Origin: Eledone cirrhosa
Taxonomy: Eukaryota
Assembly: GCA_964016885.1 (NCBI GenBank)
Contig: OZ024740.1
Location: 412,858,001 to 412,922,000 of the forward strand
Direction of reading: 5' to 3'
Length of the DNA: 64,000 nucleotides
The translations under genes were made by a program, and so were the position numbers. The notes beneath the pieces were generated by a model that worked only from the letters and a program-made list of their open reading frames with translations, ran no database searches and was not told the DNA's origin. Shown in pieces: positions 3,626 through 46,775 of the stretch; position 1 is the stretch's first letter; the number at the start of each line of letters is the position of its first letter.

Positions 3626-3638
3626 GGAAAAATTATGA

Positions 3639-3733
3639 CCCCGAAGGCAGAGCTCAAGCCGTTTCGGCGGCTATTTCTGGACTAAATTAGAATGTTTAGC
3701 CTGGTGAATAAATACCCGAACTTTTCAAGGGGG
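3639..3733 (-). ncRNA. Type I hammerhead ribozyme, U3-A8 core variant, long stem II
   Basis: CCCC-UUGAAAA-[stem II]-GAAA-CGGC...GCC(U/G)UC-GGGG. Sister copies at 9966-9990 and 46736-46762 keep the GUC triplet. The plus-strand copy at 6968-7062 is decayed. Confidence 0.65.
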
Positions 3734-4177
3734 TACTTCCTTATATGGGAAGATTATAGTTGTCAAGAGGAATGGTTAAAATTTGTTGTAAACACAAATG
3801 AGTCTATGATGGCATTTGGTGGGAGGTTGGGGTGGCTGAACTTGCCTGTAGAACAATAGGGGAGGTTATAGAATAGGTATATCGAATGAGAGTAGGAGAC
3901 AATAAAAGATAATGGAAAGAAATAAAAAAATATATAAAATTAGATAGTGTGAAATGAATAAAAAAAATTACAATGCTATCTTACAATTACAGGTTAATAA
4001 GTTGAGAATAGAAAAAACTTGTAGATTGAGTAGTAACAAAACTGATACAAAATTAAAGGGGTTTTAACACATCTGCTATAAGTAGCTAGTAAAACTATCT
4101 CTGTAATAGAGCACCTTCCGACTCTACCACGCAATATCCCGACTTTTCCACCCAGCTCAACTTTCTTCAACCGCACG

Positions 4178-6257
4178 ATGCGAAAACACAACATCGACTT
4201 CTCCGCCTAGAACATCCCAGTTCCACCGAGAAAACTTTACCTTCGGATGCTCACGCAAAAAATCGACCTTTTTGCGAAAAGACTAAGATGGAGAACTTTT
4301 TTGTACGATAGATACCGCGACATTCAGGACTTCGACACCAAGGAGAGATTCGGATTCAATACCTACAAATCTCCCCCTCCGAACCCTATGATCTCAACCT
4401 TCGAGAACAACCTTTCCCACCTGGTCAAGAACATTAAATTCAAACCCAGACACAACAGATTCCTACAACAACTCCGTAGCAAAATAACAGAGTATGAAAA
4501 CACCAACGACATCATGGTGCACTCAGACAAAACTGGAAACCTCTACTTCGTCAACCCTGACAGATACCACACACTGATCGGGTGCAGCCTAAACACCACC
4601 TATAAAAAGGCTAGCCATTCAATTATCGAGGACATAAATCGAGATGGACACCAAATTACCTCCAACCTCGGGGTCGCCGACCGCACTGAACCCCTAGAAC
4701 AACGAACTCCCTACTTCACACTGAAGGACCACAAATCCGACTTCGACCGCAAACCATCCATTAGGCTTATAAACCCAACGAAGTCCGACATAGGGAGAAT
4801 CAGTAAAAAGATCCTTGACCGAGTTATACTAAAAGTTAAGCAAAACGTGAGACTTAGGCTATGGGTCAGCACCCAGGAAGTAATCTCATGGTTCAGGAAT
4901 ATGGAGGACAAACGAGACACAAAATTCATCCAGTTAGATATAGAGAGTTACTATGCATATATTACCTTACCGCTCCTTACGGCCGCCTTGGACTTTGCCG
5001 AAACACACACACCCATCACTGACCAGGAAAGAAATATCATTCTCCACGCCAGGAAGACAGTCCTACTTTTCGACAACTCCAAGTGGATAAAGAGAGTTCT
5101 CGACTACCGCTTAGACGTCAGTATGGGCGCGACGGATTCGGCCGCGGTCACATATCTTATAGGATTATTCCTACTATTTAAACTCACCCAAATGTTTCCT
5201 GCATTCGGCGGTGGATTGTACCGGGACGATGAGCTCCTCACCCTCAAAGGGTACAGACAACTAATCAACTTCTTTGGGGACTGGGGATTTAAAATAACCC
5301 TACAAACGTCGCTAACCCGAGTCAATTTCCTGGACGTTACCCGTAACCTCGAAAATAATCTGTACTACTCATACAGGAAACCAAACGAGAACCTGCACTA
5401 CATCCACCGCCGCTCTAACTATCTTAGAAACATCACCAATAACCTGGTTAAAAAACATCTCCCTCCGCATATCGCATTTGTCCGCTAATGATCAGATATT
5501 CGACGAACACGCACTTCATTACAACCAGGCTCTCAAACGGAGTGGCTTCGGGGAGAAAATATCCTTTTATCCAGCTTCCCTTAGCGGAACCAGCAGGCGA
5601 CACCGCCGCTCACGCAACGTAACGTGGTTCAATCTTCTGCATAATGCCGAGGTGACAACACCTATCGGGAAAATCTTCTTTAGACTCCTCGAAAAACACT
5701 TGCCACTACAATACCGCTACCACAACATAATAAACAAAAACAGCATCAAACTCTCCTACACCACGACACCTAACTTCGCACAAAACATCGTCTCATCAAA
5801 CCACAAAAACACAACCTCTATGGAAGAAATAACCTAGACATCAGTGGAGAGCCGACCAGGAGGTGTAACTGCCTAGATAGATCTACGTGCTCCTTCAACA
5901 ACAAATGCTGAGAACGCTTATATAGGATTAACCGCGTGTGACTTCAAGACCCGGCTCTACCAACACCGACATACTTTCCGAAACCCGGTCCGGCGACATG
6001 CCACTACACTTTCGGGCCACATCTGGGACCTCCAAGATAATAATATAACCTACAATCTCACTTGGAGCTTACTGTCCAGAGCTAACTCTTACATGGGAGG
6101 ACGCCGTCCGTGTAACTTATGCTCGGAGGAAACATTACAAATGCTGTTTTCGAAGGACCAACTCCTAAACAAGAAAGACGAACTGGTAACCGCACGCAAA
6201 CACAGATTGCGTAGGACTTACCTCGCCCTCAAACCCCATAACGACCCGGGTGGGTAG
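4178..6257 (+). pseudogene. PLE reverse transcriptase plus C-terminal GIY-YIG endonuclease, disrupted
   Basis: Motifs FSA*NIP, RLINPTKSDIG, FIQLDIESYY, MGATDSA, GLYRDD, VNFLDV, YRKPN, VTWFN, IKLSY, CNC..C, YIGLT, LLNKKDEL; stops and frameshifts present. Confidence 0.85.
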
Positions 6258-43850: not shown

Positions 43851-46568
43851 TATAAAAGAGAAAACACAGGTAAGCATTAATAGAAGGATTTTATCCAGGT
43901 ATTTACGACCGTTTCATTGGTACACTTACCAACCTTATATTGCTATACTGTAAATAGCAGCCACTCAATTATAATTGTTGTTCACAGTCCAAATTTTCAA
44001 AATAGTGATTAAGTTACTCCTGAAGTAATTCTTAATATATAGAGAAAAACATTTATTTGGAATTGTATTTACTAGTATATATAGAGAGAGAAGAATCAGA
44101 AGGTGAGGGGACAAATGGAATAGTATAGAGAGAGAGGAAGGGGGAAGAGGTAGGAAGTAGAGTGACAAACTGAGATGGAGGGAGGGGTATATATATATAT
44201 ATATATATATATATATATATATATATATATATATATATATATATATATATATATAAAATAATGATAAAGATAATAATGACAAAAATAAAAGCAAAGAAGG
44301 GGGTGAGAAAGAAGAAAAGAAAAGATAGCCAAGAAGGGGAGGGAAGGAAGGAAGAAAACGATGAAATAGAAGAGGAATGAGGGAGAAGAGGGGGATATAT
44401 GTATTGGTTTTGTGGGTAATTAAAATGGTTTAGATACAACAAGAGGGTATAAAATCTAAGTATATGCAGTTTGTCAGTTGGTAGTAAGAGGTTAAGGGTT
44501 CGATTTGTAGTGCGAAACTTCTCTTTGAGTCTATGGTTGCAATAAATTGATCTTTCGATTTTATTGTTGAGTAACTTATTCTTTGAACTCAAGATGTGGA
44601 ACAGCTCAAGGTCGCATAATCGACAGCTTCTCATACCACTCCGATATGGGGCGCGTTCGATAATTCTTTCTATTTCAGGGTGTATTGATGGTTACTTTCC
44701 CTCAGTTGCCAAATCTTGTTTGCAAGGGTAGTTACATAACGATGCTGGGAATGTTTCATTGCGTAACGGTGTGTATACCAACGGGCTTTAAATGTATTCC
44801 AAGTCGCTCCGATGTAATAACATTTCTGGTTGTCTGATTCCACTGTGCATTGGTAAACCAGGTTAGACTCTATCAATCCATTATGTAATGGACAGGTTTC
44901 AGGTAGGTGGCAGTTACAATTCTTGTCATGGGCAACTTTGGCATATTGGTGGGCTGCGATGCCTGTACAAGTGTGTTACGTTTTGTTTGCCTATTAGCGG
45001 GTGGTTGTGTATTAGATATTCTGTTGTGTTCGGTGGTGATTGTATTGTTATTGTTTTAAATTTGTGTTTTGGTGTTGTTATGTATCTTGTTAGCGTTAAG
45101 CATCTTAATGTGTGCCTCTATATTTGGTGCTGTGGAGTAAGATAGTCTAATAGATTTAGTGTTAAGGATTTTGCTGTATCTATGTGAATCTGGAAAGTGC
45201 TTATTTATTATTCTAAAGAAGGTAAAAAGTAGGTTAGTACTATAGAGGTGTTAAATATGGGGTTATACCAAATATATTTTCTACTGCGTGACTTGTTTGA
45301 TTTCGATGTTGTATTTTTATTTGCCGTATACTTTGCAGTTCTATGCGTAAGTGCGAGTGTGCCTGTGTTACCGGAGTTTGTGTTATGAATGTTCGTGTGC
45401 GCTTCACGGAGGCTTTCATTCTACTCTATCTAAGTGGCCTGCCTTGTCTAATGCAGTATTGTAATATTCTGTATGTTCTTCGAAGATTTGTCGGTTAGAC
45501 GAGAGGCGGGAGATCCTGAGGGATATGCTGCGTGGAATGGATTTAATTATGGATAGTGGGTGGTTTGAGTTAAAGTTGATGTATGCTAAGTTTTCATTAA
45601 TCTTATGAAAAGGTCTTATAAGTCCCATATTTAGGTTAAGCGTCGCGTCTAGAAAGTTAACTGTTTTAGTGCAATACTCATACGTTATGCTAAGGCCTAG
45701 TTTCCCGAGAGTCTTTCTAACATTCTTACTGAGTCTTTCTATGCTCTAGTTATTTAGGTTCTTAACTAGGAGAAGGGCGTCGTCTCTGTAGACTCTACCG
45801 TGAAGTTTGCTAAACTCACTTTGTAAACTATGGGCTATGTAAATACCTACTAAATCTGTGACTTGAGCCGAATCGTTAGACCCCATCGTGATGTCGAAGT
45901 TATTTAATCTATCCTTACGTTCCCAACAGGCGTTTTCAAATTTAATTATTGTTTTCCTAGCAGCTAATATGATTTTTATCTCGTCGTCCGTTATGTCAGA
46001 TTTGGCTTTGGCGAATGCTAAGGCTTTATCCAAGGTGTTGGGGGATATAGATGAGTAATAATCGTTAATGTCAAATTGTATAAATTTAGATACTTCTTTG
46101 TTAGCTATATTGTTAAACCACTTAATTGTTTCGGTAGCGTTACCCCATAGTTTAATCACTAGTTTATTCTTCATTTGTGCTATCACTCTGTCTAATATAT
46201 GTTTACTAATTTTCCCGATGTCCGATTTGGACGGGCATATAAGTCTAATTGTGGGGTTATAATCAAAATTTACCTTTTGGTCCTGGAGGTTAAATGTGGG
46301 GGTACATGGCCTAAGTGGCTCCGCTCTGTCGTCTACTCCTAGGTGTTTGACTATATTGTGTGCCTCGTTGTTGATGTTTATCAGTGCCGTCTCATTATTT
46401 TTTTTTATTTCCTATGTAATTCCTTCAGTATGAAGCTATTGTATGTATTAACATCCATCGTATACACATTTGATGTTTTGTCCGCTTTGACAATAATTTG
46501 ACAATAATTTGACAATAATTTGACAATAATTTTCAGTATAGCAATATAAGGTTGCACTTACGGTCGTA
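43851..46568 (-). mobile_element. 5'-truncated Naiad-like PLE with a short inverted pLTR arm
   Basis: RT motifs FIQFDINDYY, MGSNDSAQV, VYRDDAL, IWYNPIF; then CNC..CPL and VYQC..YYIG. 46531-46568 is an inverted pLTR piece ending ggtcgta|(TA)n. Confidence 0.85.
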
Positions 46569-46589
46569 TATATATATATATATATATAT

Positions 46590-46775
46590 AACGAAGGAAA
46601 TGTGGTAAGGAACCAGGTGGACCATAACGCACCAAAGTACTCAATACTTGAGGTAGTAGAGTGGGTAATAGGAACCAGTAAGACCCCGAGAGCTGAGCTC
46701 AAGCCGTTTCGACGGCTAATTCAGAATTAGCCGTCGAAACGGCTTGAGCTCAGCTGTCGGGGTCTTACTGGTTCC
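46590..46775. mobile_element. Palindromic pLTR-only insertion related to the 3626-7159 family
   Basis: Centre at 46723 (gacggctaattc-a-gaattagccgtc); long arm on the left, short arm on the right; TA flanks. Confidence 0.85.

Follow-up and report, generated by a model that had tools for sequence, protein, structure and literature searches.

A window of 64,000 nt from the Eledone cirrhosa genome (assembly GCA_964016885.1, contig OZ024740.1, positions 412,858,001 to 412,922,000, forward strand; by the window we mean this whole stretch) contains three insertions that belong to a single Penelope-like element (PLE) family, each built from two arms in opposite orientation. One arm is short (S) and the other long (L), and each ends at its own fixed site in the pseudo-long terminal repeat (pLTR). 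Among 140 inverted pairs with both ends typed, 135 combine an S with an L end, four are S+S and one is L+L. We consider it likely that such insertions arise by reverse transcription from the two 3' ends that a staggered cut leaves in (TA)n, each end priming at one of two fixed sites in the element's RNA. The features on which the argument draws are as follows (a slash marks the end of an arm).

3626–7159: full insertion, S arm on the minus strand and L arm on the plus strand, both in (TA)n
3626–3864, minus strand: S arm of the long insertion, an inverted pLTR without tail, end TTCC/TAT; 90.8% identity to 6838–7075, with its end at 3626
3860–4095, minus strand: inverted arm continuing into the 3' untranslated region (UTR); equivalent to 6530–6765 (99.2% identity), with 6766–6837 lost between CTCCC repeats
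4096–7156, plus strand: L arm, a near-complete unit starting 9 nt past the L site of a tandem unit, end GTT/AT
4178–6257, plus strand: broken open reading frame (ORF; stops and frameshifts) for reverse transcriptase and C-terminal GIY-YIG, with RWR, DKT, YRDD, CxCx5C, YIG and CxxC
6962–7075, plus strand: type I hammerhead predicted from the alignment and the fold of a natural copy (L063), a U3-A8 core variant in the family, predicted cut after 7058
7019–7020, plus strand: wall of inward arm ends at +1/+2, TTAGTC; 49 of 194 arms end here and 19 of 194 pass −13
7076–7156, plus strand: 81-nt tail between the putative S and L priming sites, within the 5' UTR of the next unit
9886–10086: mini-palindrome in (TA)n, S arm 9886–9944 (minus strand), L arm 9945–10086 (plus strand)
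46590–46775: mini-palindrome of a second subfamily in (TA)n, L arm 46590–46721 (minus strand), S arm 46722–46775 (plus strand)

Distances were counted from residue 17 of the predicted hammerhead. In all three window copies the S arm ends at TTCC/TAT, 17 nt past the GTC, TTC or CTC at 3643, 9903 and 46758, and the L arm ends at GTT/AT, 98 nt past the cut (7156–7058, 10086–9988 and 46688–46590). All six arm ends adjoin (TA)n, and the centres of the three copies differ. An 18-nt core motif of the family has 65,985 exact matches in the 3.0 Gb genome (G000), compared to none for the reversed control. In 800 kb of chromosome 1, taken in order of position as stretches chosen by core or linker motifs, alignment ends pile up at 7075–7080 (128 of 299) and at 7157–7159 (126 of 299), so that 254 of 299 fall at the two sites jointly. 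The base-exact ends that a preliminary description had noted in the three window copies are thus a property of the family at large, and its proposed histogram of arm ends and orientations gives two sharp peaks paired in opposite orientation.

The 140 pairs mix three sampling routes (best matches, position-ordered chromosome-1 motif matches, and centre motifs), and pairs facing each other across a TA run were removed as separate insertions. In the position-ordered set the proportion is the same: 112 of 117 pairs are S+L, and the remaining five are mostly parse errors. Among 20 long copies, seven of the eight with both ends visible are S+L, with the ORF on either arm. Two other families in the same loci gave S+L pairs in 9/9 and about 13/15 cases by eye. 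Short-read contigs from one sample, possibly the assembly's own, pass into TA at both the S and the L site; going by these, the arm ends are no assembly artefact. TAT is common to target and element at both ends. Other TAT words in the tail (7099–7103, 7120–7123) are not used as TA-joined ends, so the S and L sites are not mere TA microhomology.

The arm with the greater inward reach can be of either kind. Of 112 pairs, it is S in 53 and L in 35, and in 11 the two are equal; in the other 13 the L arm halts within the tail, leaving two arms without common sequence. S arms reach up to kilobases beyond L arms. Where target duplications of less than 20 bp are exact and informative, all five measure 14 bp (shuffles expect 0.05), and two further duplications of 12–13 bp carry one mismatch. 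A length of 14 bp is the mode, not a rule; a looser criterion was uninformative (18 of 81, compared to 18.2 shuffled).

The inner ends of the arms are not random, a point that the preliminary description had not seen. Numbering window position 7019 as +1, 175 of 194 core-bearing arms stop within −7 to +16, S and L arms alike, with the wall at +1/+2 in a TTAGTC that we take to be initiator-like. The claim that only the inner junction varies therefore holds in so far as the junction does vary, and fails in that junctions cluster at this hot spot and that two single centres recur exactly 447 and 415 times among genome motif matches. Read by eye in the first 30 matches of each, the tail side lies to the left in 19 and to the right in 10 for the first centre (one further case is S+S), and to the left in 17 and to the right in 12 for the second (one is unreadable). 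The recurrent centres are spread over at least four to five subfamilies. Since they occur with the tail on either side and in several subfamilies, they form anew.

With somewhat less confidence than we place in priming from both target ends, we take +1/+2 to be where the template RNA has its 5' end. The hammerhead cut was considered as the template end and rejected as the main stop: inner ends form no pile at the cut (+41) or at +42. Most arms read through it, and its use as a measuring point is probably incidental.

Some arms do not end at the wall. At five loci arms reach +1 to +6 and then continue in the same sense at 4358, 4359, 4530, 4285 or 6250 (L222, L240, L248, L243/L244 and L261), and in the first four the arm then goes back across the ORF start and into the tail as well. 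Such a path can be read as run-off at the RNA 5' end followed by a template jump; some junctions may come from composite sources. Two of the loci, L222:1770 and L240 (minus strand, 1772), are independent insertions with S and L swapped, and each has an extra G at a jump that leads from +2 to 4358/4359, as would follow from a composite source or from an RNA whose 3' end has a defined place in the ORF. At loci picked for the ORF start, 19 of 30 pass +1 seamlessly into the 3' UTR, compared to 19 of 194 arms overall. Such passage could occur by transfer to a 3' repeat, on a circular RNA, or on a longer tandem RNA. No cross-subfamily chimeras at the repeat were found among 97 seamless arms.

If +1 is a capped 5' end, a cap-derived G might be expected before it. 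The evidence is of mixed sign and supports this only partly. In arms that continue, the base before +1 is T in 69 of 76 and never G, whereas at arm ends G outnumbers each other base before +1 (21 of 38) and before +2 (12 of 30). Centres with both arms at +1 carry 67 G, 30 C and 3 A in the sense orientation (hand count, among the matches listed, 50 of 738 sites); many such G can be read as belonging to the partner arm or to a short slip. In single arms joined to TA a hand count gave T 396, C 47, G 27 and A 7 before +1, an enrichment over the background inside TA runs (G 93 and A 246 of 42,180).

In 49 of 54 pairs both arms belong to one major subfamily (17.2 shuffled), and three of the five misses are misclassified decay; in 19 of 22 group-B pairs both arms have the same exact linker (7.6 shuffled). 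The S+L exceptions L048 (S+S) and L261 (L+L) mix subfamilies. Three long complementary DNAs (cDNAs) come to an end at 7089, which is 14 nt beyond S, and the window copy does so 9 nt beyond L, as would be expected of collisions on a single RNA. In two minis that belong to a single rare subfamily (G000:C1:4944634 and 5227200) the same stem III G-to-C variant is present on one arm, once L and once S, a hint of two template variants in a single event. The two arms of the long window copy agree in eight private variants over their inner 236 nt (3860–4095 and 6530–6765) but are unlike at 22 sites over the outer 238 nt. Its inner arms were probably homogenised after insertion, by gene conversion or secondary duplication, with the 72-nt CTCCC-flanked loss marking the edge.

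Together these data are best accommodated as follows. The GIY-YIG endonuclease, probably as a dimer, would nick both strands about 14 nt apart. One of the resulting ATA-3' ends would pair with UAU at +59 and the other with UAU at +140, and both reverse transcriptions would travel toward the RNA 5' end, where most run off at +1/+2. Joining of the two cDNA ends would give mini-palindromes of 190–200 nt; a minority would extend into the 3' UTR and ORF, by jumps or on longer RNAs, to give long inverted copies. The S+L rule would follow if each of the two sites served once, probably on the same RNA molecule. Two-ended priming at two fixed sites had been proposed from the three window copies and is still the best reading, having come through the tests suggested for it on arm ends, orientation and centres.

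We put forward a more specific version tentatively, in which PLEs would replicate through a strong stop like that of retroviruses. The sole location of both priming sites may be the 5' leader of a capped mRNA whose start, at +1, is within the hammerhead. Such an mRNA would end at the hammerhead cut of the 3' pLTR, giving a 41-nt repeat at both ends. Both target-primed cDNAs would run off the cap, and transfer to the 3' repeat would allow the ORF to be copied; a second round would regenerate the pLTRs and the partial tandems, and failed transfers would leave mini-palindromes. The wall, the five jump loci and the 19 of 30 seamless ORF-start loci support this version. Against it, no subfamily switch was seen in the 97 seamless arms, and circular or longer tandem RNAs explain the passage equally.

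Several points weigh against two-ended priming on one RNA. The evidence consists throughout of genomic end-products. Arms mostly overlap in +1 to +58, which on one RNA would require strand displacement; an asymmetric dimer that holds two RNAs agrees with the data equally. Concordant arms can also result from gene conversion at a later stage, or from a succession of active subfamilies. Where the TA flank is interrupted, 52 of 57 pairs lack an exact 14-bp duplication (some cannot have any). Single arms joined directly to TA exist, 477 at +1 alone, and G before +1 is not enriched in them over the run-end background (G 48 and A 64 of 823).

Head-to-head palindromes and the tail are explained in print, in the available parts of PMC3846280 and PMC8557442, by self-priming. 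Applied to this family, one strand would be made, double back close to its inner end and serve as template for the second arm, on antisense RNA as proposed for rotifer PLEs, and the endonuclease would then open the hairpin at S on one side and at L on the opposite side. The common centres are asymmetric by 3–6 nt, as from a hairpin loop, and arms of a pair belong to one subfamily, both of which suit this account. We nevertheless judge it unlikely. If a target-primed cDNA folds back, the arm with the tail cannot begin later than the S arm; pairs in which it does are nonetheless the commoner class (53+13 compared to 35), and one centre occurs in both polarities. Self-priming is further at odds with the 13 pairs without common sequence, with S arms up to kilobases longer than L arms, and with jumps from +1/+2 into same-sense ORF sequence; moreover, in vitro work on another PLE has demonstrated priming on sense RNA at both tail boundaries. 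These points bear less strictly on an antisense version in which either arm may be the one trimmed.

Slightly less probable still is that two ribonucleoprotein particles (RNPs), or a dimer with two RNAs, are at work, the choice of S or L being set by protein asymmetry and the wall being a pause of the reverse transcriptase in stem II. This shares its core, two-ended priming, with our preferred explanation. Overlapping arms would then form without displacement, and a few pairs do look discordant (13660179, 23298024, L048 and L261); in addition +1/+2 lies inside the predicted stem II hairpin, and G before +1 is not above the background of TA-run ends. However, discordant pairs are rare despite the many subfamilies, a pause would be expected at the stem base (+15 or +4) rather than in mid-helix, and L arms stalled in the tail, with the three stops at 7089, suggest collision on one RNA.

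That the minis are miniature inverted-repeat transposable elements (MITEs), or some other fixed palindrome amplified as a unit, is very improbable: the exact recurrence of two centres and the TA target are as expected, but the tail lies on either side of those centres in several subfamilies, 110 minis show dozens of centres rather than the one that such an origin predicts, each recurrent centre accounts for only about 1% of all pairs, which going by the core count number roughly 33,000, and minis grade into ORF-bearing copies with identical ends. A fixed internal sequence with fixed polarity, as in a MITE, is refuted for most copies.

Twin priming of L1 offers a mechanistic parallel. There the second target strand primes reverse transcription and the two cDNAs are joined internally, producing an inversion; the position of the second site varies, the arms are free of overlap, and the outcome is a minority one. 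In the E. cirrhosa family neither site varies, most arms overlap (13 of 112 pairs do not; target duplication in 5–7 informative cases), and the inverted product is the rule and not the exception. The mode would work like L1 twin priming, with fixed sites and overlapping arms.

The preliminary description had regarded the precision of the ends as undescribed, which does not stand. For PAc, a Poseidon element of Anolis carolinensis, two fixed internal start sites of reverse transcription bound the tail and genomic ends lie precisely there; in vitro, both target strands are cut and then extended from the two tail boundaries (Frangieh 2024, PMC11167929). The E. cirrhosa family resembles PAc in having putative tail-bounding start sites, genomic ends on these sites, a hammerhead just upstream and an AT-rich target. 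It differs in that the PAc tail is 30–40 nt and lies in the ORF start, while here, with start sites read from genomic ends, it would be 81 nt in the 5' UTR; and in the main text of that paper the two sites are linked neither to the two target ends nor to inverted copies. That one of two inverted pLTRs bears a tail is likewise on record (Arkhipova 2013, PMC3846280, in the part available, which derives palindromes from self-priming on an antisense template and leaves the matter open), and the accessible portion of Craig 2021 (PMC8557442) has the tail often at one end alone. As far as the available sections go, Schostak 2008 states that no mechanism is known for pLTR regeneration, Cervera 2014 (PMC4209133) proposes circular RNAs, and PMC8557442, PMC3846280 and PMC2377424 call the origin of inverted and tandem PLE structures open.

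Penelope of D. virilis and Pen2a_Av of Adineta vaga show the same partial tandems, inverted 5'-truncated pLTR, one-sided tail, target duplication and pLTR-internal promoter, in what could be consulted of PMC2377424 and PMC3846280; according to the same portions, their duplications are 8–10 bp instead of about 14 bp, and they are described from few copies, without statistics, and explained by self-priming. In the literature searched we found no statement of two sites serving two target ends, or of twin priming in PLEs, but key older PLE papers outside that search may contain the idea. Fixed ends and their precision are thus already known as the PLE tail; what this family adds is strict pairing of S with L, duplications of 14 bp and the wall of inner ends.

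Tens of thousands of independent, rule-bound integration products make it possible to separate self-priming from twin target priming. For the existing in vitro system the latter predicts primers at +58 and +139, a 14-nt stagger and run-off at +1. If true, two-ended priming would be the normal PLE route and not an accident like that of L1, and a single RNP would join an insert to its target at either end, with a bearing on gene insertion tools based on reverse transcription. The minis are in any case a large class that is easily misannotated, as they resemble MITEs or microRNA hairpins.

By motifs, target and layout the family is assigned as a new member of the Hydra clade of PLEs. The traits of this clade are given in the available part of Craig 2021 (PMC8557442): an element of at most about 3 kb with a single ORF of reverse transcriptase and C-terminal GIY-YIG, RWK, DKT in place of DKG, a CxCx5C linker, CxxC and CxH flanking the conserved E and N, an endonuclease lacking CCHH, a hammerhead in the pLTR and a (TA)n target. 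A single ORF in which YRDD precedes YIG is present in the window and in natural copies L251–L270, in a unit of about 3.07 kb. Of 21 natural copies, 12 have AKRLRWRT.., in which R replaces the K of RWK, and 15 have SDKTGNLY; a CxCx5C linker of the type RRCNCPDRSTCPLNNKC occurs in at least 10 of 20 copies, and, for CxxC and CxH, PCNLCSEE in at least 14 and TACKHR in at least 11 of 21. Atlas neighbours of natural copy L265 (0.96–0.98) bear GIY-YIG, HTH_animal and RVT_1. Pfam and PDB sequence searches of window fragments gave no match, and no CCHH was evident on reading the translated endonuclease alone, without alignment to Penelope/Neptune references. At all 30 loci picked for the ORF 5' region, 7158 continues via 8 nt into 4096. 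Because the L site continues into the ORF 5' region in tandems, the 81-nt stretch from S to L constitutes the PLE tail, located in the 5' UTR. Compared by description and not by sequence (for example with Hydra-1_Obim), the family has in common with the endonuclease-positive (EN+, C-terminal) Hydra clade the unit of about 3 kb, the ORF of reverse transcriptase and GIY-YIG, DKT, CxCx5C, CxxC, CxH, the hammerhead and the (TA)n target; it differs in RWR for RWK, in the U3-A8 hammerhead core and in the tens of thousands of mini-palindromes. Long copies belonging to B subfamilies (G000:C1:4079021–4084460 and 6671069–6676760) measure about 5.3–5.6 kb from L to S, far above the 3.1-kb A unit.

Cleavage by the pLTR hammerhead is predicted from its fold and conserved core. 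The natural copy L063 folds, by prediction, as a type I hammerhead in which an extension of stem I closes at the S site; the window copy has core changes at 6976 and 7038. The U3-A8 core variant is known from Schistosoma PLEs (Cervera 2014, PMC4209133, in its available part). There were no compensatory pairs in 10 aligned copies, and Rfam gave nothing at gathering score in the window, its E-value matches being hairpin look-alikes. In some arms (L083, L089 and L069) stem III has been lost between short direct repeats, possibly because reverse transcriptase slips over the hairpin.

Other repeats in the window show related structures. A second hammerhead family (7340–7545 and 61436–61677; core CTGATGA..GAAAC) forms the same minis and is the one with about 13 of 15 short+long pairs; its copy at 61436 is long+long. 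The third family (30953–32127 and 43965–46411), with 9 of 9 pairs, has inverted short and long arms and a tail of about 65 nt, and its 3' sequence is common, by translation, to a broken Hydra-like ORF on the minus strand at 44053–46411. At 7904–9540 a 235-nt inverted repeat pair (94%) surrounds microsatellite-rich DNA and begins in a TA run. By reading of translations, other broken retroelements lie at:

10985–13606
15721–18728, with 61709–64000
34538–41566
47576–50745

These we take to be two Neptune/Poseidon-like PLEs, L1/Tx1-like pieces and an RTE-like long interspersed element; one of the presumed Neptune/Poseidon-like PLEs has a long inverted copy 43–47 kb away.

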